Source: an uncultured bacterium
GTDB taxonomy: Bacteria > Armatimonadota > UBA5829
DNA: 15,363 nucleotides
Direction: 5' to 3'
NCBI GenBank assembly: GCA_963775535.1
Contig: CAVZJH010000066.1
Coordinates: 1 to 15,363 of the forward strand
Shown: piece after piece, positions 911-15,363 of the stretch
How the letters are laid out: each line of letters begins with the position of its first letter
Position numbering within the stretch: position 1 is the first letter of the stretch
The notes under the pieces: model-generated
What the model was told of the DNA's origin: nothing
What the model saw: only the letters and a program-made list of their open reading frames with translations
The model's database searches: none
Program-made: the position numbers and the translations under genes

Positions 911-2935
911 ATGGGAATTATTGTGTTAATGGGCCTGATCGGCCTTACGATGATCATCGGGCCATTCTTCTATCCGGTCACGACGATCAGCCGCGGCATA
1001 CTCCTCGGTTTTGGAGCGCTGCTGACGGTCGTTTCCATTGTTCTGACGCTGATCACCCAGTGGTACCAGCGAGCATCGGCTGAAGAAGCTATAGTCAGGA
1101 CGGGTATGGGCGGCAGCAAGGTGATCATCGACGGCGGCATAATGACGGTTCCGGTCGTCCACCGCATCACCCGCGTCTCACTCAAGGTTATTAAGCTCAC
1201 GTGCGTCCGTGAAGGGCCGGACGCTCTTATTACCAGGGATTACCTGCGCGCGGACGTTCACTCCGAGTTTTATATGAGAGTGGGCGCTACGCCGGAGCAG
1301 GTTCTGAACGCCGCTCGGTCCTTTGGCGAGGAATCAGGCACTGAGGAGAGGATCGATGCCAAGGTCGGCGAGAAGTTGATCTCGGCGCTGCGCTCAGTCG
1401 CAGCGAAACACGAACTGGCTGAGCTCCACTCCGACCGCGAGAGCTTTGCTATCGCCGTCCAGGAACTCGTCGCGAAGGAGATCGAGCCCAACGGTTTGAC
1501 GCTGGAGACGGTCACTATTTCCAGACTCGACCAGACCGACCCCGCGCACCTGAACGACAACAACGTCTTCGACGCGCAGGGAAAACGGAAGATCACCGAG
1601 ATCACCACCGCCGCACTCGTCGCACGCAACGAACTGGAGCGCACGGCCGAGCAGGCCACCACGCAGAAGAACGTATCGACCCGAAAGAGCGTTCTTACCC
1701 TGCAGCAAGACCAGGCTACGGCCGAAGCCGAACAGCAGATGCAGATCAACAAGGTCCAGGCCGAAAAGCAGCGCGAGGCCGACGTCTATCGCATCGAGCA
1801 GGAGCGGCAGACCCAGCAGGCGCAGATCGTGGCGGATCAGTCGGTGAGGCAGGCGGATATCGCCAAGGAGCAGACGATCCAGACCACCGAGGTCGACAAG
1901 GTCAAGATGGTCGAGGTTGCCACCCGGGACCAGCAGATCGCTATCACCCAGAAGGAAGCCGAGAGGGCAGATGCCGAACGCGCAAGATACGACGCCGAGG
2001 CCGCGCGCGAACAGGCCAACCAGCAGGTTAAGACCGTTGAGGTTGTGGCGGGGGCCGAGCGCGAAGCCAGGCAAAAGCTGATCGGCGCGGAGAACGAGGC
2101 GCAGCAGGCCCTGGTCCGAAAGCAGAAGGACGCAGACGCCATCGCCTACCAGAAGCAGAAGGAAGCGGAAGGCGAGTTCAACGCCGCGCAGAGCCGTGCA
2201 AAAGCCACCCTCACAATGGCGGACGCCGATTCGCAGGCTAAGATGCGACTGGCTGAAGGTGAAAGAGCCGTCCAGTTCGTTCCTGTCCAGGTAGAAGCCG
2301 AGCGGGTGGAAGTGAACCGCAAGCAGATGGAGGTAGACCGGGCTTCCGCCGAATACAGGCAGCAGTTCGAAAAATCCGCCATCGAGTTCGAGGTTGCCAA
2401 GCTCGAGGTCAATGCGAGAAAAGAGATCCAGATCGCAATGGCGAACGCGATCGGCAACTTCGTCCAGCAGGGCAGCTACACGGTGTACGGGACCCCGGAC
2501 ACAATGGCCGATATGCTCGAGAAACTGTCCAAGGGCCTTGGGGTTGGAGCGTTCATCGACGGTATGGGCAAGAGCATCCTCGGTGGCAACGGCGACCGCT
2601 CACCTGCCGAGACCGTCGGCGACCTCGCCGGCCTGGTCGGAGAGGCCATAAAGAAAGCAACCGGCAAGGACGTGAGCGTTGCTCCGGAGCTCGCCCAGAA
2701 GATCGCTTCCCTGGTCCTGGGCAATGAGCCCGACCAGAAGGCGTCTCGAGTCCGCTCCAAAAGTCGCCGAGGGGCTCCGCCCGGACGGCAGTATCAGAAA
2801 GACCGAGCGGAAACCGCAGGCTTAATTCTGCGTCTATTAGATGGGGGGGTGAGGGTCTTAGGACCCTCACCCCAGTGCTTTCTTGAGCGAGGTGACGCGC
2901 TGGTTCGCTATGCCGCGCGAATTGAGACTTGTTGA
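911..2935 (+). CDS. Flotillin-like SPFH/band-7 domain protein (YqiK-like) with a long Q/E/A-rich coiled-coil region; the true 3' end may be about 2824
   Basis: An RBS (aggaaagggg) lies about 10 nt upstream of ATG 911. The N-terminal TM helix is followed by the SPFH signature (GGSKVIIDGGIMTVPVVHRITRVSLKVIKLTCVREGPDALITRDYLRADVHSEFYMRV). About 350 aa of heptad-like AEQ/ERQ repeats follow. The last about 60 aa in this frame are Arg-rich junk. An alternative frame gives ...ESAPKVAEGLRPDGSIRKTERKPQA and stops at about 2824, just before the hairpin at 2846-2873, which suggests a frameshift in the tail near 2735-2750. Confidence 0.8.
   Translation: MGIIVLMGLIGLTMIIGPFFYPVTTISRGILLGFGALLTVVSIVLTLITQWYQRASAEEAIVRTGMGGSKVIIDGGIMTVPVVHRITRVSLKVIKLTCVREGPDALITRDYLRADVHSEFYMRVGATPEQVLNAARSFGEESGTEERIDAKVGEKLISALRSVAAKHELAELHSDRESFAIAVQELVAKEIEPNGLTLETVTISRLDQTDPAHLNDNNVFDAQGKRKITEITTAALVARNELERTAEQATTQKNVSTRKSVLTLQQDQATAEAEQQMQINKVQAEKQREADVYRIEQERQTQQAQIVADQSVRQADIAKEQTIQTTEVDKVKMVEVATRDQQIAITQKEAERADAERARYDAEAAREQANQQVKTVEVVAGAEREARQKLIGAENEAQQALVRKQKDADAIAYQKQKEAEGEFNAAQSRAKATLTMADADSQAKMRLAEGERAVQFVPVQVEAERVEVNRKQMEVDRASAEYRQQFEKSAIEFEVAKLEVNARKEIQIAMANAIGNFVQQGSYTVYGTPDTMADMLEKLSKGLGVGAFIDGMGKSILGGNGDRSPAETVGDLAGLVGEAIKKATGKDVSVAPELAQKIASLVLGNEPDQKASRVRSKSRRGAPPGRQYQKDRAETAGLILRLLDGGVRVLGPSPQCFLERGDALVRYAARIETC
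2846..2873. terminator. Perfect 12-bp GC-rich stem-loop (GGGGTGAGGGTC-TTAG-GACCCTCACCCC) between the convergent flotillin and pdhB genes; a likely bidirectional terminator or REP-like palindrome
   Basis: I read the palindrome directly from the sequence. It is followed on the plus strand by AGTGCTTTCTTG, which is T-rich, and it lies between two convergent gene ends. Confidence 0.4.
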
Positions 2936-3008
2936 AACTGTGTCCGGGCAGATCAGCAATTCGCGGATTGTGTTCGGGCAGATTTGCAATCTGGCCCGCA
3001 AAAAGCGC

Positions 3009-4016
3009 CTATATCGACGCTGCTATGGCCCCCGCCTGCGCGCCCGTGAGCGCCTTCTTCACCGCTGTCAGGATCTTTGCCTCGTCCGGCAGCGCGGAGA
3101 GCTCCAGTTCCCGGGAATACGGCATCGGGTTGTCCGCGAGGGTGACTCTGTCGATCGGCGCGTCGAGGTAGTCGAATGCGTGGTGCTGGATTTGATCCAC
3201 GATCTGCGCCCCGACCCCGCACATGGGCCAATCCTCTTCTACTATGACAACGTGGTTGGTCTTCTTTACGGACCTGACCATCGTTGCCACGTCCATCGGG
3301 CGCAGGGTCCGCAGGTCCACTACCTCCGCATTGATCCCCTCGTAAGCCAGCTTGTCGGCGGCCTTCATGGCCACGCTGACCATTCTGAGATAGGCGATAA
3401 TCGTGACGTCTGTTCCCTGCCGCTTGATATCCGCCTTTCCCAGCGGGATCGTGTATTCCTCGTCGGGAACTTCGCCCTTCATCGAATAGAGCAGTTCGTG
3501 CTCGAGGAATATGACGGGGTTATTATCCCGGATGGCGCTCTTTAAGAGGCCCTTGGCATCATAGGGCGTGGCCGCGGCAGCCACTTTCAGGCCCGGAACG
3601 TGCACAAACCAAGACTCCAGGTTCTGCGAGTGCTGTGCTCCGAGCTGCATTCCGGCTCCCTCCAGAGCCCGAATCACCATGGGAACACTGAGCTGACCAC
3701 CGCTCATGTATCTGAGCTTTGCGGCGTGGTTTACGATCTGGTCCATCGCCAGCACCGCGAAGTTGATGGTCATCATCTCCACCACAGGCCTGAGCCCCAG
3801 CATCGCCGCACCCGTCCCGATCCCCGCGAGGACCAGCTCGGAAATAGGGCTGTCCCGCACGCGCGTCTCGCCGAACTCCTCGAGCAGCCGCTCGGTCACC
3901 CGGTAAGCTCCCTGGTACTGCGCCACTTCTTCGCCTATGAGAAAGACGTTCTCATCACGCCGCATCTCCTCGCGAAGGGCATGGTTAAGAGCCTGTCTGT
4001 AGTATATCGACGGCAT
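3009..4016 (-). CDS. pdhB: 2-oxoacid (pyruvate/acetoin) dehydrogenase E1 component beta subunit
   Basis: The 335-aa product has the transketolase-like pyrimidine-binding and C-terminal domains of E1-beta (LIGEEVAQYQGAYRVTERLLEEFGETRVRDSPISE..., PMCGVGAQIV). An AAGGAG RBS lies 8 nt upstream of the ATG on the minus strand. It sits immediately downstream of the E1-alpha gene. Confidence 0.85.
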   Translation of the reverse strand: MPSIYYRQALNHALREEMRRDENVFLIGEEVAQYQGAYRVTERLLEEFGETRVRDSPISELVLAGIGTGAAMLGLRPVVEMMTINFAVLAMDQIVNHAAKLRYMSGGQLSVPMVIRALEGAGMQLGAQHSQNLESWFVHVPGLKVAAAATPYDAKGLLKSAIRDNNPVIFLEHELLYSMKGEVPDEEYTIPLGKADIKRQGTDVTIIAYLRMVSVAMKAADKLAYEGINAEVVDLRTLRPMDVATMVRSVKKTNHVVIVEEDWPMCGVGAQIVDQIQHHAFDYLDAPIDRVTLADNPMPYSRELELSALPDEAKILTAVKKALTGAQAGAIAASI

Positions 4017-4033
4017 CGCGGCACACTCCTTTC

Positions 4034-4198
4034 GAGTGGGGGGCTTTGCCCCCTAACCCCCACCAGAGACCGCCGTCTCTGGACTCTGCTGGGGCCAAGG
4101 GCCCCAGACCCCTGGCTCGCTTCGCGTCTATGCTCACCCTAACGGTGAGCATAGACGCGAAGCGCAATATGGGGGTCCAGGAGGCAAAGCCCCCACTT
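4034..4198. repeat. 165-bp nested palindromic element in the pdhA-pdhB intercistronic space
   Basis: An outer imperfect stem pairs GTGGGGGGCTTTGCC (4034-4050) with GGCAAAGCCCCCAC (4183-4196). Three internal hairpins lie inside it. The first is CCAGAGAC-cgcc-GTCTCTGG (4063-4082). The second is CTGGGGCC-aag-GGCCCCAG (4089-4107). The third is a perfect 20-bp stem, GCTTCGCGTCTATGCTCACC-ctaac-GGTGAGCATAGACGCGAAGC (4119-4163). Confidence 0.7.
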
Positions 4199-5154
4199 CA
4201 CGCGTATACGTCCTGCCACAGCGCTTCGGGCGGTGGCAGGGGTGATTTCTCAGCAAACTCAACAGCTTCTTCTATCTCGCTGTCCACATCCGCCTGTATC
4301 TTTTCGATGTCCTCCGGCGTCAGTATTCCCTCATCGAGGAGGACGGCGCCGAAGGTGACTATCGGATCGCGCGTGCGCCACTCCTCGATCTCGTTCCTCG
4401 ACCGATATGTGCCGGGGTCGGACATCGAGTGGCCGCGAAACCGATAGGTTACAGCCTCCACGAACATCGGGCGCTTTTCTTCCCGCACGTGCTTCATGGC
4501 TTTCTGGGCGACCTCGCAGACGGCCAGCACGTCCATTCCGTCCACGCTCTCCACTTCCATGGCGTAACACTGAGCGCGGCGGTGCAGGTTCGGCACAGCG
4601 GATGCGCGCTCCACCGCCGTGCCCATGCCGTATAGATTGTTCTCGCAGACGAACAGAATTGGCAGGTTCCACAGCGAGGCAACGTTGAGGGTTTCGTGGA
4701 ATGCGCCTTCGTTGACGGCGCCATCTCCAAAGAAGCTCAGGCATATCTGGTCTCCACCGCGATAGTTGATGGCGTAGCCGATCCCTGCCGCAAGGGGTAA
4801 TCCCCCGCCGACTATTGCAGTGCCGCCGAGGAATCGCCTGTCCACGTCGAAAAGGTGCATGGAACCGCCCTTGCCGCCCGAGACCCCCGTCGCCTTGCCG
4901 AACAACTCCGCCATGACGCGGCTGGGGCTCGCGCACCTGGCGAGCGCGTGGCCGTGGTCGCGGTAGGCGCCAATCACGTAGTCGTCCGGCCTGAGCGGCC
5001 ACGTGAATCCGCTGGCAACCGCCTCCTGGCCGATGTAGAGGTGCAGGAACCCGCGAACCTTCCCCTGTTCATACATTTCCCCCGCGGCTTCCTCGAACTT
5101 TCTGATCATCGCCATCTCGCGGTAGACGCCTATCTTGTCCTGCTTACTGAGCAT
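4198..5154 (-). CDS. pdhA: 2-oxoacid (pyruvate/acetoin) dehydrogenase E1 component alpha subunit (TPP-dependent)
   Basis: The 318-aa product has the TPP-binding motif region (GDGAVNEGAFHETLNVASLWNLPILFVCENNLYGMGT) and the typical E1-alpha N-terminus (LYIGQEAVASG). It is followed by the beta subunit. Confidence 0.85.
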   Translation of the reverse strand: MLSKQDKIGVYREMAMIRKFEEAAGEMYEQGKVRGFLHLYIGQEAVASGFTWPLRPDDYVIGAYRDHGHALARCASPSRVMAELFGKATGVSGGKGGSMHLFDVDRRFLGGTAIVGGGLPLAAGIGYAINYRGGDQICLSFFGDGAVNEGAFHETLNVASLWNLPILFVCENNLYGMGTAVERASAVPNLHRRAQCYAMEVESVDGMDVLAVCEVAQKAMKHVREEKRPMFVEAVTYRFRGHSMSDPGTYRSRNEIEEWRTRDPIVTFGAVLLDEGILTPEDIEKIQADVDSEIEEAVEFAEKSPLPPPEALWQDVYA

Positions 5155-5180
5155 TGCACACCCCAGGACCTAAAAAACTA

Positions 5181-6022
5181 TCTGGTTAGTCGCGTGGTAT
5201 GAGCTTCTGACCAGCGGTCCTGATTCAACATACCCAAATCCCATATCAAGCGCAATGCGTCTGAGTTCGGAGAATTTCGTCGGGGGTGTAGTATCTGGAG
5301 ATGGGGACGTGGTTTTTGGAGGGGGCAAGGTACTGGCCGATGGTGAGGATGTCGCAGTGGGCTTCGCGCAGATCGCGAATGGCTTCCAGCAGTTCGTCCC
5401 AAGTCTCGCCGACGCCGACCATCACGCCCGACTTGGTGCGGATCGAGGAATCTATGCCTTTTGCCTTCTTGAGCAGCGCGATGGACCTGGTGTAGAGAGC
5501 CTGGGGGCGAACGAAGGGGGTAGCAGCGTTCGACGGTTTCGATGTTGTGGTTAAGGATCTCGGGCTTCGCTTCTACAACAAGCCCCAGAATCGCTCGTCA
5601 CCCTGGAAATCTGGAATAAGCACCTCGACTGAACACTCCTCGACACCCTGGTGTATCAACCCTATGGTCTGGGCAAAAACGTGCGCACCCCCGTCGATTT
5701 GATCGTCCCGGGTAACGCTGGTAACCACCGCATGACGGAGCTGCAAATAAGCTGCGGCCTGGGCCACGCGACGAGGTTCGTCCTCGTCCACAGGCCCCGG
5801 CGCGCCGTGGTTCACCGCGCAGAAGCGGCAGTTGCGCGTGCAGGTGTTTCCGAGAATCATAAAGGCAGCAGTGCGAGAGTGCCAGCACTCGCCGATGTTA
5901 GGGCAGTTTGCGCTCTGGCAGACGGTGTGCAGGTGCGCGGACTCAACGAGCCTTTTCACGCCTTCGTAATTCTCTCCCGCGGGAGCTTTGGCTTTTATCC
6001 AGTCAGGGCGCTGCAATCTCAC
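5181..6022 (-). CDS. lipA: Lipoyl synthase LipA (radical SAM); the coding sequence is interrupted by three single-nucleotide frameshifts
   Basis: The N-terminal segment (GTG 6022 down to 5573) carries both LipA cysteine motifs, CxxxCPNxxEC and CTRxCxFC ([16 protein letters not shown]..., [14 protein letters not shown]). The remainder of LipA can be read on the minus strand in two other frames: ...[24 protein letters not shown], then [80 protein letters not shown], then [34 protein letters not shown] and a stop at 5181. The frame shifts fall near 5575, in the G5/C5 run near 5516-5520, and at the A3 run near 5270. Confidence 0.8.
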
Positions 6023-6220: not shown

Positions 6221-6670
6221 GTGTCTGACCGACCTTCGTTTGATAGAGTGTATATGGATGTCGTGGATATCATCGCCAGGCGGTCGACGTGCCTGCGAAA
6301 ACACGTTGGGGCAGTGATCACCATCGACCACCGCATACTTTCGCACGGCTACAACGGCGTCCCCAGCGGCCAGGAGCACTGCTGCGATACGAAGCAATGC
6401 CTCAAGGACAGGGCGGGCACCGAAGAATACAAAGTTTGCGTGCATGCCGAGCAAAATGCCATCTGCCAGTGTGCCAAGCGCGGCCTCGCTCTGGAGGGCG
6501 CGACGGTGTATGTGAACGCCGACATCTGCATCACCTGCGCTAAGCTGATGATCTCCTCGGGGATTGCCCGGTGCGTGGTCAAGCGCGACCACAAGGGGAC
6601 CTCGGACGGAGCCGGACTTCTAATAAAATGCGGCGTGGAAGTGGTGGAGTGGCCGGATGGCGCATTCTGA
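6221..6670 (+). CDS. dCMP deaminase family (ComEB/Dcd-type) zinc-dependent deaminase
   Basis: The 149-aa product has the diagnostic motifs ARRSTCLRKHVGAVI, GYNGVPSG..HC, HAEQNAI (the zinc-binding H-x-E) and ICITCAKLMI (PCxxC). The start is GTG. Confidence 0.75.
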   Translation: MSDRPSFDRVYMDVVDIIARRSTCLRKHVGAVITIDHRILSHGYNGVPSGQEHCCDTKQCLKDRAGTEEYKVCVHAEQNAICQCAKRGLALEGATVYVNADICITCAKLMISSGIARCVVKRDHKGTSDGAGLLIKCGVEVVEWPDGAF

Positions 6671-7343
6671 CCCGACCCTGAAAGCGGTAGTATTCGATAT
6701 AGGGGCTACGCTGGTTACGGGACCGCCCGTTGCTCCCAACAAGGTCATTGCCGCGCTCATAGACGGTGCCAGCGCCGCTGAGGTTTCATCGGTGATCATG
6801 ACAACCGAACTGCTCTCCGCCGAGCACGCTTGCGCCGTGCTGCAGGCGAGGTTCGGTTCTCTGAGCGAGACGGCGGTTTCCGGAATCACCCGGCTTTGGA
6901 GATCTCAGATAACGGCGGCGGTGGGGATCGAAGGCGCGTGCGAGACCGCGATGTCGATCAAGCGGCGAGGGCTGAAGCTGGGGCTGTTATCGGACATCTG
7001 GAACCCGTATTACGCAAGTGTTCAGAGGGCGCTGCCGGAGGTCGTGAGGGCCGCGGACGCTGTTGTGCTGAGCTGCAGGACCGGGGCGCGCAAACCGGAG
7101 CGCGACAACTTCCAGGCAGTATTGGACGAGCTGGGATTGGCGCCGGGCGAGGTGGTAATGGTGGGGGATACCTATGCCCACGATATTCTTCCCGCTATCG
7201 AGATGGGAATGCCGACGGTGTGGGTGATGGCGAGGCCGGAGCGCGAGGCGGATTCGATTGTGCGCATCCTGAACGGGGAGAATCCGGCGCCGACGGTGAC
7301 GGTTTCCCACATAAGCCAGGTCGCGTGTCTGAAGATTTTCTAA
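6657..7343 (+). CDS. HAD-superfamily hydrolase; motif I is D-I-G-A-T rather than DxDxT
   Basis: Motif I is VVFDIGATLV. Motif II is LLSDIWNP. The motif III lysine is in ARKPERDNF. Motif IV is MVGDTYAHDI. The gene overlaps the deaminase by 14 nt, indicating translational coupling. Confidence 0.7.
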   Translation: MAHSDPTLKAVVFDIGATLVTGPPVAPNKVIAALIDGASAAEVSSVIMTTELLSAEHACAVLQARFGSLSETAVSGITRLWRSQITAAVGIEGACETAMSIKRRGLKLGLLSDIWNPYYASVQRALPEVVRAADAVVLSCRTGARKPERDNFQAVLDELGLAPGEVVMVGDTYAHDILPAIEMGMPTVWVMARPEREADSIVRILNGENPAPTVTVSHISQVACLKIF

Positions 7344-7360
7344 TCAAGAAAGAATAAACT

Positions 7361-7445
7361 TGGGAGGGTTTCTACCCTCACCCCTGCTGTGGACCCACTG
7401 GACCACAGCACCCCCTCTCCCTGTGAGGGTGAGGATGGAAACGCA
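7361..7445. repeat. Structured GC-rich nested inverted-repeat element in the HAD to ParB-like intergenic space; it shares the CCCTCACCCC core with the hairpin at 2846-2873
   Basis: Outer arms GTTTCTACCCTCACCC (7368-7383) and GGGTGAGGATGGAAAC (7427-7442) are imperfect reverse complements. Inner hairpins are GAGGG/CCCTC (7364-7379), GCTGTGG...CCACAGC (about 7385-7409) and CCCTC...GAGGG (7413-7429). Confidence 0.5.
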
Positions 7446-7479
7446 GCGATCCCAGAAAACCATAGAGAGGTGTTGAGGA

Positions 7480-8094
7480 ATGGAAATACAGCGAGTGGAA
7501 CGTCATAGTGTGGATGAACTGGTGGCCAACCTGCGCAGGGTGGGCATGTTCACCGACCCCGAGGCGCGCGTCTACAAGAACTCGGTAATCGAGCTCACCT
7601 CGTTTCACACAAATGAGATCGCGCCGGCCCAGCGATACGTGCTGGCGAGTGAGATCACAAAGGTGCGCGACTTGAAGTGGGCGCTGGCGGAGCACGCTGT
7701 GGACTTGTTCAGGCTCGATGGCTACGCGACTATCTGGCTGGAGGGCTACGACGATCCGATAGACGTTCTGCCGCCCGTTATCGAACAGTCCGCGGAGGCC
7801 GACGGCAGCGTAGTGAAGATTTTGAACGACGGTATGCACCGGGTCTACCTCGCGAGGATGGAGCGATCCCCGATCCAGGTGGTCTACATCCGCAATGTGC
7901 CGGAGCAGTATCCGTATTACGCGTTCCCGCTCGTGAACGGCTGGAACGATGTTGCGATCATGCAGGACCTGCCCGAGGGCTACATAAAGAAATGGCATCG
8001 CATCAAGAACTACAAGAGCCTTTACAGAGACTTCAACACCGGCTTCCAGAATGTCGGCGGGCCCAGAGGGCACTTCTCTAATGCCGGAAAGTAA
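7480..8094 (+). CDS. ParB/sulfiredoxin-fold (ParB-like nuclease domain) protein
   Basis: The 204-aa product contains VLPPVIEQSAEADGSVVKILNDGMHRVYLARMERSPIQVV. This matches the ParB/Srx core pattern: a Pi.v segment, then l.DGhHR..Aa, then an i.v segment. GAGAGG lies about 9 nt upstream of ATG 7480. The stop codon overlaps the start of the next gene. Confidence 0.5.
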   Translation: MEIQRVERHSVDELVANLRRVGMFTDPEARVYKNSVIELTSFHTNEIAPAQRYVLASEITKVRDLKWALAEHAVDLFRLDGYATIWLEGYDDPIDVLPPVIEQSAEADGSVVKILNDGMHRVYLARMERSPIQVVYIRNVPEQYPYYAFPLVNGWNDVAIMQDLPEGYIKKWHRIKNYKSLYRDFNTGFQNVGGPRGHFSNAGK

Positions 8095-9522
8095 TGATCT
8101 CGAGTTCATTGCGCTTCATTTCCCGGACAAGCTGAGGATCGTTAACCCCCGCGCTCGCCTCGGAGTTATTACGCTCTGGAGCAGGATCGAGTTTGTAGAG
8201 AGCAAGCTCGCTCAGATGGGGGTCGACCTGAACCCTGCAACTTCTAAAATAGCGGTCATCGGCAACCTCTACGGCAACGGCATTCCGCACTTGCTTCGCA
8301 ACCTGCTCTACAACCCGCAGATTCGCGACCTCGTGATATGCGGGGCGAACAAGTCCGGCTCCGCCGAGGAATTGATCGCGTTTTTCGAATCCGGGACCGA
8401 GCGCGCCACGAGCCTTGGAGAAAGCGTCACGCGAATAAAGGGGACAAGGCGGATCATCGACGACGCGCTGACCCCGGAGCATTTCTCGACGAGGCCGCGC
8501 ATCACGAGGTTCGGCGAACTCAGGGACTGCGGGGGGACCTGCGGGCTTACATTGCGGCGTGCTGCCCGGCCCAAGTGAGCGCGGAGCGTGTTAAGATCGA
8601 TCTGCCGGAGGTAAAGGTCACCCACTTCCCGAGCGAGCCGCGCAACCATAACGTGGTAACGGACACCCCGCTGGCGGCCTGGCGCGAGCTTATATTCCGC
8701 CTGGTGCGCTTCGGGCACCTGGTGAAGCTGCGAAAGGGCGACCGGCAGGAGCTGCCCAACGTGCGCGTGGTGGTGCGCGAGCCCGGGGAAGATGATACCG
8801 AGGAACTGGCGAAGTTCAACTTTTCCATTGACGAGCTCAGGCAGTATCAGCGCGACATGCTCCTCGGCCCGCTGCCGGAGGACCACTGCTACACCTACGG
8901 CAACCGGATTAGGGAATACTTCGGCTTCGATTCGCTTGAAAAGTTCGCCCAAAGGCTAAAAGCGAACCCGCAGGATCGGGACTGCTACCTCGCTCTGTGG
9001 GACAGCCATCACGACATCGACGCGGATGACGCTCCGTGCCTGGTCTCGCTGTTTTTCCGGGTGTTCGATGCCAGGCTGACCCTCACCGCGACCTACCGCA
9101 CCCACAACGCGCTCGATGCGTGGCTTAAGAATGTCTACGGGCTGATGAAGGCGCAGGAGATCGTGGCCGAAAAGGCGGGGCTGCCGGTGGGGCCGCTCAC
9201 GGTGATCAGCCACTCGATCAGCATTGACCCGTCCAAGTATGACGCCGCGCTGCGCGTGGCGAATGCCAGGGGGTTCTCGCTCGAGATCGACCCCAGCGGC
9301 CAGTTTATGGTGAGCGTGGAGGATGCGGAGATAGTGGTGCGGCACATGAACGATGACGGCTTCCTGCTCCACGAATACCGCTCCAAAAAGGCCGAGCGCA
9401 TCCAGCACGAGCTCAACCGCGACTGCGCGATCTCGGACATCAACCACGCGATGTATATAGGCCGGCAGCTCGCGAAGGCCGAGATTTGCTTGAGGAGCGG
9501 GGAAGAGTTCGAGGAAGGGTAG
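8081..9522 (+). CDS. Fusion protein: N-terminal MtrA-like domain (tetrahydromethanopterin S-methyltransferase subunit A family) joined to a C-terminal divergent thymidylate-synthase-fold domain; the frame shifts within the G6 run at 8542-8547
   Basis: The N-terminal segment is LGVITLWS...IAVIGNLYGNGIPHLLRNLLYNPQIRDLVICGANKSGS. This aligns by eye to the MtrA core (lGVvTLgS ... GIEKVvAN.ISNPNIRflIlCGSEVqGH). The C-terminus has TS-fold motifs: LKANPQDRDCYLALWD matches TS l.NP.SRR....AWN. DAPCLVSLFFRV matches the PCH nucleophile region with the Cys retained. YRTHNALDA matches QRSxD. SHSISI replaces GDAHIY. Frame 2 (8081-8578) and frame 1 (about 8540-9522) join at CTGCGGGGGGACC. An alternative start is ATG 8051. 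Confidence 0.6.
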
Positions 9523-9535
9523 GACTTCGGTTTTA

Positions 9536-9618
9536 GAATCGCTGAAGCGCTGAAATGAGATGAATGCGCTGAATCCATATCTTCAGCGTCATCACAAAAT
9601 TCAGCGTCTCAGCGATTC
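9536..9618 (+). repeat. 83-bp hairpin-rich repeat element, copy A
   Basis: The sequence is GAATCGCTGAAGCGCTGAAA...CGCTGAATCCATATCTTCAGCGTCATCAC.AAATTCAGCGTCTCAGCGATTC. It has 19-bp terminal inverted repeats with 2 mismatches and an internal stem GATGA..CGCTGAA/TTCAGCG-TCATC. It is about 90% identical to copy B. Confidence 0.8.
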
Positions 9619-9694
9619 GCTGCACTCAAATCTCGAAACATCGGGGCGTGGGTTTCTAAGGGTGAACTTCATTCAAGGCTAACGGAGGTCACAG

Positions 9695-10225
9695 TTGGAT
9701 GTGGATAAATTCATCAATTGCTTTGTAGATGCCATCAACCGTGCCCAAAAGGAGCCAGTTTGGGATAACGAATCTCCCGCCAGCGTCTACATTGGAGAAC
9801 AGTGGGATCAGGACAGGCACGAATGGCGAATTAAGCCTTACGAGTCGGTTGACTGGATCGCACCGTTAGAGCAGCAAATCAAACTCTCTTTTCCCAGGCT
9901 CTACCGCTCGCTTGTGACACGCTACATTTTCCCGGCCTTCGATATCGACGATCTCAACATATCTTTCCTGGGCAATACGCCAGAGGGCACGGACTTCCGT
10001 GAGATGAGAGATCGTCTGCTGACAAGCGGTATGTCTCACATATTGCTGCCTAACGGGTATCTTCACTTTGCAAATCCGCTTGACGGGCGAATGTTTGATC
10101 CGCTGTGCTTTGACACGAAGCGAACGAACGAGCACGGCGACTGCCCCATTGTCAGGATCGATCATGAGGCGATATTAGGTTACAACGAATCATCTATAGT
10201 TGAGGAGATTCGCGCCGTCGTTTGA
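9695..10225 (+). CDS. Low-GC hypothetical protein that resembles SUKH/SMI1-KNR4-type immunity proteins
   Basis: GGAGG lies 6 nt before TTG 9695. The 176-aa product has SUKH-like segments (WIAPLEQQIKLSFPRLYRSLVTRYIFPAF; LLPNGYLHFANPLDGRMFDPLCFD). GC is visibly lower, at about 50%, than the flanking DNA. The assignment is by eye only. Confidence 0.4.
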   Translation: MDVDKFINCFVDAINRAQKEPVWDNESPASVYIGEQWDQDRHEWRIKPYESVDWIAPLEQQIKLSFPRLYRSLVTRYIFPAFDIDDLNISFLGNTPEGTDFREMRDRLLTSGMSHILLPNGYLHFANPLDGRMFDPLCFDTKRTNEHGDCPIVRIDHEAILGYNESSIVEEIRAVV

Positions 10226-10300: not shown

Positions 10301-10383
10301 GAATCGCTGAAGCGCTGAAAGCGGATGAGAACGCTGAATCCATATCTTCAGCGTCATCACGAAATTCAGCGTCTCAGCGATTC
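10301..10383 (+). repeat. 83-bp hairpin-rich repeat element, copy B, a direct repeat of 9536-9618
   Basis: The two copies are identical except for about 7 substitutions, which are clustered in the internal bulge segment (TGAGATGAATG in A, GCGGATGAGAA in B) and one A/G position. Confidence 0.8.
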
Positions 10384-10417
10384 AATGCGCCACCACAACT
10401 AAGAAGCGGATTTTGTG

Positions 10418-11381: not shown

Positions 11382-12712
11382 GTGAGCATCGACCTTTCCA
11401 CCACCCCCAACTTCTGCGCGCACGAGCATTGGGGGTGCATTGATTCCATCGGCAAAAACCCTCAGGACTTCCGCGTCGATCTCGAGCGCGGCGCGACGCC
11501 CAGCGCTTCCCTCGGCTCTTCGACATCCTCGTTGACCCGTATCTGAACTGGATGCTCGGTCTCGCCGGAGTGAATGTCGATGAACTCGCTGGCGGCGATT
11601 TCCGGAGCTTGGCCGCACGCTCACCGGCCGAGGCGATGGCTGTCATTCGTCCGGCCCTGAACCGCCAACGGCTGACAGGAACTTATCAGTGCACCCGCCG
11701 GGGGATGCTGAAGCTCTACGGCTTTGATGTGGACAGCGGCGATCCACGGGAAATCGAAGCGCTGAATGCGGCCATAGCGCACGCCTACTCCAACATGTTC
11801 GCCTGGTACCGCGCCGCTATGGACAAAGCCCATTTCTCGGAGGTGATTCGCCCGGTCCACCCCGAATACTTCACGGCCCAGCAGTCGCCGGAGACGGCCG
11901 CGCGGGAGTCGGCGTTCGTTAATACGATCATGCGTATCGATTCCCTGCTTGCGCTCTGGCCGAGGAAATGCCCGCGCAGGGACGCGCTTGCGAACATACT
12001 CGGCGTCGAGCCGGTCGATGCGAAGAGCTGGCGCGAGTTTATCCACGCGATACTCGACCTTGCCGCGGAAAATGGAACCACCGGCATCAAGCAGGCTCAG
12101 GCCTACGACCGGCGCCTGACGTTCGTCGCGCGCGAGGATTCTGAAGTCGCGTTCTCCGCGGACATGACTCCCGAGCAGGTGCGCGTGTGGCAGGACTGGG
12201 CTGCGCACGTATGCTTCGAATATGCCGACGACCGGGGCTGGCCGCACCAGGTCCACGTGGGAACCCACAACTTGCCTCATTCCTCCCCGCTTCCCCTGGG
12301 TGATGTCGCGGCCCGCTACGGACGAATGAAACTCGTGCAAATCCACTGCTGGCCGTTCCTGAAAGAAGCCGGGTGGCTGGCTAAGCACTACCCCAACGTC
12401 TACATAGACAGTTGCTGGCTGCCGATCCTGAGCCCCGGGTTCTACCGAGAAGCCCTCATGACCTGGCTCAACTATGTGCCCATCCACAAGCTCATGTGCT
12501 CGCACGATGCAACGTGCGTCGAAATGGCGGTCGGGTCTTCGCTCTTCACGCGAGAAATATTAGCCGAAGCGCTCGTAGAGCAAACGCACAGCTTCGGTCT
12601 TTCAACGAGCGATCTCGAGCAAACCGCAGCAGACCTTCTGCATAACAACGCGGCGACGGTCTACGGGATTGGCGTGCAAAAAACTACAACACCAGCACAT
12701 TCTCTCGCGTAG
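11382..12712 (+). CDS. Metal-dependent TIM-barrel amidohydrolase (amidohydrolase-2-like); the frame shifts near 11495-11510
   Basis: The N-terminal piece in frame 3 (VSIDLSTTPNFCAHEHWGCIDSIGKNPQDFRVDLE) carries the HxH metal motif. The main ORF (11552-12712) carries later barrel motifs (QVHVGTHN, QIHCWPF, MCSHDA). The frame-2 upstream sequence ARRDAQRFPRLFDILVDPYLNW connects the two pieces. Confidence 0.5.
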
Positions 12713-12754
12713 TTCTACTGGCGGACGTTCAGGGGCTTCGCCCCCGAACCCTCA

Positions 12755-12799
12755 CCAAGGGCGCTGCCCTTGGATCCCGCCAGGAAACTGTGTTTCCTG
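12755..12799. terminator. Pair of 8-bp stem hairpins (CCAAGGGC-gct-GCCCTTGG and CAGGAAAC-tgt-GTTTCCTG) after the amidohydrolase stop
   Basis: Read directly from the sequence. It is preceded by GGGGC-ttc-GCCCC and a CCCTCACC motif at 12732-12754, and lies between convergent transcription units. Confidence 0.35.
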
Positions 12800-12960
12800 G
12801 ACATTCCGACTCCCTTCGCGTATGTCCACATAAAGAAGATAGATATAATGCGCTCGCAGACAACTTACTTGTAAAACCTGTTCATGACGCCCAAAGCACG
12901 AAGAAGCACCGCTGTCGTTGGGTCTCCAGGTATCAGTGTGAAGCGGTCAATGACGCGAGT

Positions 12961-13790
12961 TTCTCATTGACAAGGTTAAGCAGTTCGGCCTCGGAGGGCT
13001 GCCAGGAGCTCGGCAGGACGTCGCGCAAGCCCGTGACCACAGCCTGCTTGTAAGGCCGGTCGTTTTCCAGCGCGTCTTTGAACAGACCGAATTCCTTCTA
13101 CCGAGTTCGACCGCGCTAATTCTCTCACACAGCTTTCCGCGTAGCCGCCTTTCTTGATCCCTTCCAGCAGTAAGGAACAGCGGCATCACCAAATGCCTGA
13201 TGTATCTCTGAGGCAATCGGGAACATCGGGAAGAAGAACCCATCCAACCTATCCGAAGTATCCGTTGAAGCGAGCAGAGGCCCTAGTTTTTGCAGGTGGC
13301 TGGTTTCGCTGCCTGATGAATGGCCCCCACCGCCTCGTCTCTGACCGATGGAACCTCCGCCAACTGCAACAAGAGATCGTGCGCCCGGTCAGTCTTAAGC
13401 ATCTCGGTCGATTAAACCAGCGGCAGAAGCGCTTCTCTCTGAATAAACGTTCGAATGTGCGGAACTGCTGCCCACACTAAGTCCTGTATCAGTTTCGGCA
13501 CCGCGGGCTGCTCCTTCCATACAACCGCGGCTGCGGATATTCGAGAAGTGAACTGCCTTCAGCGGCATCAAGACGTCCAGGGAGTGGACTGCCGCGCCTG
13601 CCGTTTCCGCGGAATGGAGTGAGAAATGGAATGATCGAGTCTGCCAACCGCCTCGCAGCGGGCTGGAACAAATCCGCGTGTCCGCTCAAATAATAGGCCA
13701 AGTCGTCAGTCAGGTCCCTCTTTGGCCAGCATTAACGCGGGATCTCGCGCCTTATGACATCATCCCCGTAGTAGTCCAGCACATTAAGGC
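12961..13790 (-). pseudogene. Decayed paralogue of the HEAT-like gene at 14529-15363, carrying multiple frameshifts and stops
   Basis: Nucleotide-level similarity to 14551-15363 runs across about 0.8 kb, with long identical blocks such as TTCATTGACAA.GTTAAGCAG.TCGGCCTCGGA.GGCTGCCAGGAG.TCGGCAGGAC and CAGCCTGCTTGTAAGGCCGGTCGTTTTCCAG. There are scattered indels. Only short broken ORFs remain (12947-13243 and 13489-13701). Confidence 0.6.
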
Positions 13791-14528: not shown

Positions 14529-15363
14529 TCAACGAACCAATGCGCCTGCCAACCTTTCATTGACAATGTTAAGCAGCTCGGCCTCGGAAGGCTGCCAGGA
14601 GTTCGGCAGGACATCTCGCAAGCCCTTGACCACAGCCTGCTTGTAAGGCCGGTCGTTTTCCAGTGCGTCTTTGAACAGCCCGAAGCCTTCTACCGAGTTC
14701 GACCGCGCTAATTCCACCACACAGCTTTCGGCATCGCCGCCTTTCCCGGATCCCTTCCAGCAGGTAAGGAACAGCGGCGTCACCAAATGCACGATGTATC
14801 TCGCCGGCAATCTCGGAGGAGTCGGAGGTTTATCCAACTTATCCCCCAACGCGAGCAGTGGGCCTAACTTCGGCAGGTCCGCTGGATTGCTTGGCCTCAC
14901 AGACACACGACACCGCCAACTCTCTGACCGATGGAACCTCCGCCAACTGCAACAAAAGATCGTGCGCCCGGTCTGAGTTGAGCTGAGTCATAAACAGAAC
15001 CAGCGGCAAAAGCGCTTCGCTCTGAGTAAACGTTCGAATGTGCGGAACTGCTGCCCACACTGCGTCCTCTATCATCTTCCGCACCGCGGGCTGCTCCTTC
15101 CACGTCTGAAACCGCCCCGGAACTTCCGAGAAGTGACCTGCGTTCAGCCCCATCAGGATGTCCAGGGAGCGAACTGCCTCGCCTGCCGTTTTCGCGGAAT
15201 TGGAGTCGAGAAATGGAATGATCGACTCTACCAACTGCCTCACAACGGGCTGGAACAAATCCGCGTGTTGGCTCACGTAGTGGGCCACGGCGTCAGTAGG
15301 TCCTTCTTTGGCCAGCACGCGCGGGATCTCACGCTTTATCACATCATCCCCGGCAACCAGCGC
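14529..15363 (-). CDS. Alpha-helical (HEAT-like) hypothetical protein, 5'-partial because it runs off the window end; the frame shifts near 14905
   Basis: Two overlapping minus-strand ORFs are present (14839-15342 and 14529-14906). Their protein-like portions join as ...LLLQLAEVPSVRE, then ELARSNSVEGFGLFKDALENDRPYKQAVVKGLRDVLPNSWQPSEAELLNIVNERLAGALVR. The helix-rich repeats show no catalytic motif. Confidence 0.4.

Follow-up and report, generated by a model that had tools for sequence, protein, structure and literature searches.

Why is a pair of genes that is normally tightly coupled held apart by 181 nt of strongly structured DNA? This question is raised by the E1-alpha and E1-beta genes of an uncultured bacterium of the Armatimonadota (GenBank assembly GCA_963775535.1, contig CAVZJH010000066.1), which lie in the stretch of 15,363 nt analyzed here and called the window below. 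We consider the palindromic sequence between the two genes (the pdh element) to be a non-coding, non-autonomous repeat, closest to the REP doublets known as REPINs or BIMEs, that entered this lineage of Armatimonadota by insertion between the stop codon of E1-alpha and the ribosome binding site of E1-beta, and we give this reading a probability of roughly 0.7. The odd 181-nt gap would then be explained as a tolerated selfish insertion. Such an insertion is ordinary biology; the surprise is the conservation across phyla of the module from which the element is built.

The palindrome at the E1-alpha/E1-beta junction

The junction is composed of the following features:

3009-4016, minus strand: E1-beta gene (pdhB-like), Pfam PF02779/PF02780 (Transket_pyr, Transketolase_C)
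4026-4031, minus strand: Shine-Dalgarno sequence AAGGAG of E1-beta, with the element 4 nt upstream and the ATG (4014-4016) 9 nt downstream
4035-4197, no strand assigned: whole palindromic element, 163 nt, seen as inverted repeats and bounded by comparison with the 14-nt spacer of a relative (L002)
4198-4200, minus strand (TCA on the plus strand): stop codon TGA of E1-alpha, which abuts the palindromic element directly
4198-5154, minus strand: E1-alpha gene (pdhA-like), Pfam PF00676 (E1_dh, 2.5e-87)

The spacer of 181 nt between the two genes (4017-4197) is therefore exactly as a preliminary description of this DNA had given it. In the sense of the mRNA, the junction reads GCG TGA, then the element, AGTGGGGG...(163 nt)...CCCCCCACT, then CGAAAGGAGTGTGCCGCG and the ATG, and the element thus sits exactly between the stop codon of E1-alpha and the Shine-Dalgarno sequence of E1-beta. 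The spacer minus the element is 18 nt long with the Shine-Dalgarno sequence still intact, and both flanking genes are intact as well. The pair has no E2 or E3 gene beside it, either in the window (911-5154) or in relatives (L002, 8975-12869); its neighbors are lipA upstream and, on the other strand, a Band-7 gene in the window or a DUF169 gene in relatives. The lipoyl synthase gene (lipA, 5179-6022, minus strand) has an in-frame stop at 5573-5575 and a frameshift near 5280. At both sites, single-base indels distinguish it from L001 (ENA ERZ25039519), an independent and noisier assembly of the same organism that is 96% identical over 15 kb, and these lesions probably arose as indel errors during the assembly of one sequence or of both; otherwise lipA would be a pseudogene.

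The pdh element is an inverted doublet of a hairpin-array module arranged around a central hairpin, and its parts are as follows:

4035-4062, plus strand: left outer arm, containing hairpin A GGGGGCTTTGCCCCC (4039-4053) and the linker TAACCCCCA
4063-4082, plus strand: hairpin B, CCAGAGAC-CGCC-GTCTCTGG (stem 4063-4070/4075-4082), an inverted repeat with a covariance-model match
4089-4107, plus strand: hairpin C, CTGGGGCC-AAG-GGCCCCAG (stem 4089-4096/4100-4107), an inverted repeat that is also present in the fold
4118-4164, no strand assigned: central hairpin, an inverted repeat with a perfect 21-bp stem (4118-4138/4144-4164) and a 5-nt loop
4170-4197, minus strand: right outer arm, an inverted and shortened module with hairpin A' GGGGGCTTTGCCTCC (4180-4194) followed by TGGACCCCCA

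Several details of the preliminary description are revised by this anatomy. It had placed the structured element correctly and had extended it by one nucleotide on each side (4034-4198). Its right arm, which was said to overlap the last codons of pdhA, ends at 4197, abuts the stop codon and includes no sense codons. Three enclosed hairpins, one of them perfect, are indeed present, and the perfect stem has 21 rather than 20 bp. The outer stem, described as 14-15 bp, is longer and imperfect: a repeat finder pairs 4035-4062 with 4170-4197 (28 nt, 71% complementary) or 4039-4061 with 4172-4194 (23 nt, 83%), and the computed fold contains approximately 24 outer pairs. The right outer arm is without hairpins B and C.

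The RNA fold of the mRNA strand of 4017-4210 (194 nt, the spacer and the last 13 nt of pdhA) has a predicted energy of -135 kcal/mol (z -12.7), and none of 200 shuffled sequences was as stable. The opposite strand gives -125.5 kcal/mol (z -12.3), and the 163-nt element folded alone gives -126.7 kcal/mol. The fold of the element is predicted to be far more stable than its flanks. In these predictions, the probability that the Shine-Dalgarno sequence of E1-beta is unpaired is 0.96 in the absence of the element and drops to 0.52 in its presence because the terminal CACUC of the element can pair with GAGUG.

The junction in relatives

The homologs of E1-alpha assign the window to the Armatimonadota. 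The assembly L001 carries the element at the same E1-alpha/E1-beta junction (89% identity over 159 nt). The element is absent from the closest relatives: in L002 and L003 (82% E1-alpha identity), the junction is TAG-AGGGAGAATGCCAA-GTG with a spacer of 14 nt, and L131 has a spacer of 34 nt, so that the relatives at 81-82% protein identity have spacers of either 14 or 34 nt. Among the 79 loci with relatives of E1-alpha, the commonest spacer is 2 nt and the majority are 21 nt or shorter, and in relatives at 57-83% E1-alpha identity, the spacer is often 53-420 nt. A scan of the loci of the pdh relatives (360 kb, Armatimonadota-like) with R1, a covariance model built from the alignment of the repeat family described below, returned no family copies at a threshold of E<=1. 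Significant structure is lacking in approximately half of the long spacers, and several others hold palindromes that are unrelated to the pdh element, with z scores from -4 to -13.7. These unrelated palindromes at the junction are listed here:

L004 and L134: L004 5612-5797, 186 nt, z -8
L140: 1095-1309, 215 nt, z -9
L147: 2952-3071, perfect 29-bp hairpin, z -11
L151: 2961-3380, 420 nt, z -13.7
L132: 2201-2412
L155: 966-1044
L165: 2958-3066
L157

The inserts of L147 and L132 share a hairpin type, CCCTCACCC...CCCTCTCCC / GGGAGAGGG...GGGTGAGGG.

Because the spacers of close relatives are without the element and those of other relatives carry unrelated palindromes, comparison of the loci indicates that the pdh element is a lineage-specific insertion and not a conserved regulatory RNA. 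The preliminary description had offered both possibilities, a REP/BIME-like or MITE-like insertion and an intercistronic regulatory RNA. The first is upheld by the empty spacers of relatives and by copies elsewhere. A conserved cis-regulatory or intercistronic RNA is not supported: the element is not conserved across orthologous operons, R1 finds none in the 360 kb of the relatives' loci, and it matches no Rfam family. An intrinsic terminator was rejected, as 4017-4197 contains no site with a GC-rich hairpin and a U-tract, and the spacer contains no sigma-70 promoter consensus.

A different form of the regulatory idea is that the repeat, whatever its origin, was recruited or maintained as a selected intercistronic mRNA element that protects the upstream cistron from 3'-exonucleases, provides an RNase III site, or uncouples or tunes translation. 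The expanded spacers of many relatives would fit this idea, and one junction repeatedly occupied by different palindromes could reflect selection. The Shine-Dalgarno sequence is intact, yet its predicted accessibility is nearly halved, and a perfect duplex of 21 bp is long enough for RNase III. However, the closest relatives manage with 14 and 34 nt and without any such element, and the short spacers of most related loci point the same way. E1 works as alpha2beta2, and unequal output of its subunits would be without obvious benefit. Moreover, comparable palindromes occur in other intergenic regions: in a census of the relatives' loci, inverted repeats whose arms reach 16 nt or more were counted 7 times in junctions and 33 times elsewhere, including other gene boundaries. 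The type of element also varies by lineage, and about one in two of the long spacers shows no significant structure. We therefore regard a selected mRNA element as unlikely, and selection for a structure at the alpha-beta junction as a minority possibility. The most economical interpretation is a clade with an abundance of intergenic palindromes in general, in which the alpha-beta junction offers one permissive landing site that different palindromes have entered again and again in related lineages.

The hairpin-array repeat family

A search with the small hairpin of the element gave a related site at 12731, from which a second copy in the window was traced:

12725-12830, plus strand: copy 2, a single-arm family copy; R1 match at 12725-12781, 63.7 bits, E 5e-13

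Copy 2 begins approximately 14 nt past the stop codon of an amidohydrolase gene (11552-12712) and consists of hairpin A, GAACCCTCA, hairpin B, ATCCCG, hairpin C and then CTCCCTTCGCGTATGTCCAC, with hairpin C followed by CTC-CTTCGCGT. The 26-nt core GGGGCTTYGCCCCCKAACCCYCACCA is present twice in the window, at 4040 and at 12732. In the pdh element, R1 matches the left arm at 4033-4090 (plus strand, 62.2 bits, E 1e-12) and the right arm at 4161-4200 (minus strand, 14.9 bits, E 0.046), which gives 168 nt from arm to arm. By the same model, the 15-kb window holds two high-scoring copies, an additional arm and a weak array. The weak array (7360-7417, 13.8 bits, E 0.08) has the layout hairpin, ACCCCT, hairpin, ACCCCC and lies between a convergent HAD-hydrolase gene (6657-7343) and the ORF 7378-8109. 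Two other repeats were observed in the window. A different palindromic element of 88 nt occurs in two copies that are 90% identical (9536-9623 and 10301-10388; arms GAATCGCTGAAGCGCTGAA / TTCAGCGTCTCAGCGATTC) and flank the ORF 9695-10225, which is a weak SUKH/SMI1-like match and not a transposase or RAYT. A dispersed duplication of approximately 800 nt (12964-13770 and 14557-15352, 86-93% identical, offset by approximately 1,590 nt) spans ORFs of the minus strand, one of which weakly matches HEAT repeats, and resembles paralogous genes.

The copies outside the window define a common unit: the hairpin GGGGCTTYGCCCC, a C-rich linker AACCCCCA, a variable second hairpin, a further C-rich linker, A[AC][AC]CC, and frequently a third hairpin. 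Hairpin B of the pdh element is the variable second hairpin of the family and starts at the CCA of the core. A pattern, GCTTNGCCCCCNAACCCNCACCA, was searched in one genome per species and matched at least 118 stretches; its 20 specified bases are expected by our estimate to give approximately one chance match at uniform base composition. At 146 or more sites in bacterial genomes, the 26-nt core (GGGGCTTYGCCCCC-KAACCCYCACCA) is accompanied by a variable hairpin with a compensated stem, and in 133 of the 146 listed, a hairpin whose 5' arm starts from the CCA of the core directly follows the match. The matches listed for GCTTNGCCCCCNAACCCNCACCA include isolates and metagenome-assembled genomes (MAGs) of Acetobacteraceae, three Magnetococcales MAGs, two Wallbacteria MAGs, one Chloroflexia MAG, about a dozen Clostridia/Bacillota MAGs, and Acidobacteria, Lentisphaerae, Methylacidiphilaceae, Vampirovibrionaceae and Methylococcaceae; Armatimonadota genomes are not among them. 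Many copies are present per genome, for example in Gluconacetobacter entanii, Novacetimonas maltaceti and a Magnetococcales MAG. The GC content of the host loci ranges from 39% to 74%, and therefore the family is not contamination from a single taxon. The module is nearly identical over 26-57 nt in bacteria across phyla: copy 2 has 91-93% identity over 54-57 nt with copies from Acetobacteraceae MAGs, and the left arm of the pdh element has 86% identity over 51 nt with a Chloroflexia copy.

The hairpins of the family show compensatory changes. In an alignment of 66 sequences, 93.9% of the cells pair, a value that exceeds all of 500 shuffles and all slid controls, and three pairs of positions show compensatory swaps (CG 39/UA 20; GC 34/AU 29; GC 44/AU 18). 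The second hairpin varies from 19 to 23 nt, and since such lengths vary by 1-4 nt and not by multiples of three, a protein-coding repeat was rejected. The first hairpin has a recurrent A.C mismatch in many lineages (TCAGGGGC...GCCCCCGA; columns 7/21 of alignment A2; in the window, for example, 12729-12747), corresponding to a G.T wobble if the opposite strand is considered. In total, 42 A.C or C.A cells were counted vs 3 G.T or T.G cells, an excess to which the search pattern itself contributes in part and for which a single position is mainly responsible. This asymmetry hints that the G-rich strand is the one that is read as a single strand; as evidence for single-strand mobilization it is weak because the search pattern biases it. 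The C-rich strand is sense to the adjacent gene in a ratio of 45:24, which is unreliable since crude ORF calling put 59 matches inside extended ORFs.

The arrangement of neighboring copies is informative. In 761 kb of family loci, R1 found 199 copies; 31 neighboring pairs are inverted doublets that converge, span 120-292 nt and have the conserved hairpin on the outside, 6 are divergent pairs, and 36 are tandem pairs with a period of mostly 135-139 nt (Acetobacteraceae). Because its 168 nt from arm to arm lie within the range of these doublets, the pdh element is a standard full-length doublet of the family, and an alphaproteobacterial locus (L069) contains an element nested in the same way: each arm has three hairpins, and a long hairpin occupies the center. 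In syntenic loci, at apparently the same two intergenic sites, Novacetimonas pomaceti has 1, N. maltaceti 3 and Gluconacetobacter entanii 2 tandem units with a period of approximately 136 nt (L019, 1685 and 4405; L022, 1100-1429 and 4043-4376; L035, 1359-1555 and 4128-4321), which suggests copy-number change in place.

These arrangements also bear on whether the palindrome was built where it now lies, that is, whether a single-arm module such as copy 2 was extended by intrastrand template switching or inverted duplication to give the second arm and the hairpin in the center. In favor of construction in place, the central stem pairs perfectly (100%), whereas complementarity between the outer arms is only 71-83%; a single-copy, unpaired segment of copy 2 aligns as a homolog of one arm of the central hairpin (CTTCGCGTCTATGCTCAC); and hairpins B and C are missing from the right arm. 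However, the norm of the family in many genomes is an inverted doublet whose outermost part is the conserved hairpin (31 vs 6), and some of these doublets have long central hairpins. Furthermore, the module would still have had to arrive, as the 14-nt spacer of the relatives is empty. We consider construction in place to be quite improbable. An assembly or sequencing artifact, for example a chimeric fold-back read, has a negligible probability: the window apparently does contain indel errors, as in lipA, where the stop and frameshift differ from L001, but that assembly comes from another data set and has the element at the same junction, the arms of the element match a family with members in hundreds of unrelated assemblies, and the flanking genes are both intact.

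We searched for traces of the family in existing collections. At gathering thresholds for the window and 18 family loci, and by E-value for the spacer, Rfam returned only chance miRNA-like matches and two tRNAs. BLAST against plasmids and phages gave no match to the pdh element and three marginal matches to the Acetobacteraceae unit, and a pattern scan of viral contigs gave only 7 stretches on 5 contigs, two with tandem copies. A metagenome search with the pattern of the three-module unit plus CTTCGCGT returned no match. A literature search with k-mers of the element on both strands retrieved only unrelated primer matches, and the REP/RAYT surveys list neither these host taxa nor the family motif. 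We tentatively propose that the hairpin-array module represents an undescribed cross-phylum family of structured repeats that has been amplified in each genome as its own subfamily, usually as inverted doublets. If this proposal is true, either a non-autonomous element crosses from phylum to phylum, or some widely conserved enzyme, of the host or mobile, recognizes the same folded single strand everywhere. Such a family would also explain many of the spurious Gly/Pro-rich hypothetical proteins that gene callers likely predict over such repeats.

Proposed mode of spread and comparison with known systems

The pdh element, read as an inserted repeat, is built of two modules in inverted orientation; the conserved first hairpin lies at either end and the perfect hairpin in the middle. 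By analogy with the action of RAYT/HUH nucleases on REPs, the element may spread as folded single-stranded DNA through an enzyme that acts in trans. Spread as a folded single strand would fit the compensated hairpins, the inverted-doublet form, the lack of target duplication and the recurrent A.C mismatch. Once inserted, the element would be co-transcribed with the operon and is predicted to form a very stable multi-branch fold. The operon may tolerate this structure since E1-beta still has a Shine-Dalgarno sequence of its own. The mRNA may also be affected secondarily: according to the predicted fold, the element may incidentally be an exonuclease barrier or an RNase III substrate, and it may partly mask the Shine-Dalgarno sequence of E1-beta.

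Two further classes were considered and rejected. A tRNA-like 3' end was rejected on sequence, and the tRNA/tmRNA scan of the window returned nothing. Integron attC sites have core sites R'' RYYYAAC and R' GTTRRRY and lie in cassette arrays in one orientation. The family ends CCCGAAC / GTTCGGG or CCCAAAC / GTTTGGG have C or T where R is required, and the family copies are dispersed among housekeeping genes.

Bacterial MITEs (Correia/NEMIS, ERIC, RUP, Nezha) are similar to the pdh element in being 100-300 nt long, non-coding and intergenic with terminal inverted repeats, and they can also be co-transcribed and fold in mRNA. The element has the terminal inverted repeats, the length within 50-500 nt and the lack of coding capacity by which MITEs are defined. 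However, it has no target-site duplication (its flanks read GCGTGA before it and CGAAAGG after it), and no direct repeats were seen flanking 25 family doublets. No autonomous or parent insertion sequence with the same ends was found in the family loci examined or in the plasmid and phage collections. In addition, the terminal repeats of the family are self-folding hairpin arrays with compensated stems, unlike those of MITEs; transposases that bind double-stranded DNA need no such self-folding terminal repeats.

The REPINs and BIMEs of Enterobacteria and Pseudomonas, which are mobilized by RAYT/TnpA-REP, are the closest parallel. Like the pdh family, they form inverted doublets that fold into a long hairpin and sometimes tandem clusters, and they are non-coding, are without target duplication and lie inside operons right after stop codons. 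REPs are short (20-40 nt), GC-rich, extragenic imperfect palindromes, and the family has hairpins of 15-21 nt after stop codons; the inverted units of REPINs and BIMEs that form a long hairpin or alternating clusters correspond to the arms in the window and to the 31 doublets. According to published definitions, a REP also carries the tetranucleotide GTAG or GTGG 0-2 nt 5' of the hairpin foot (PMC6006769, PMC3733652). The pdh element has no GTAG or GTGG at its hairpin foot; its G-rich strand does have a GTGG (opposite the CCAC of CCCCCACCA), which overlaps the final base pair of hairpin B and is 3-6 nt away from the foot of hairpin A. An arm of the family consists of two or three hairpins joined by C-rich linkers, whereas a REP is one hairpin. 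No Y1 transposase or RAYT was found among the ORFs of the window or beside the family copies examined, and all-against-all clustering of 2,021 ORFs from 118 family loci identified no recurrent neighbor protein; the genes between flanking copies are pyrF and an M48 peptidase. Given that the GTAG tag and a target-site duplication are missing and that no transposase was seen, strict membership in the REP/RAYT or MITE class, as distinct from the REP-like or MITE-like character of the insertion, is not established. Furthermore, published work describes REPINs as lineage-specific and vertically inherited, unlike the family reported here, whose core is the same across Acetobacteraceae, Magnetococcales, Clostridia, Chloroflexia, Wallbacteria and other groups. 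The sharing of one core by Armatimonadota, Alphaproteobacteria, Clostridia, Chloroflexia and several candidate phyla is a misfit with this picture of vertical inheritance, and it would point to an unrecognized mobilizing enzyme or to unusually broad horizontal spread.

A final comparison is offered by the intercistronic REPs of E. coli and Salmonella at malE-malF and hisJ-hisQ, where, as at the pdh junction, a repeat-derived stable stem-loop lies between cistrons of one operon. Unequal expression is useful in those operons, whereas the products of the pdh pair are needed 1:1, and the pdh element is absent from the nearest relatives. By analogy with malE-malF and hisJ-hisQ, the blocking of 3'-exonucleases is the likely physical behavior of the pdh element wherever it is transcribed.
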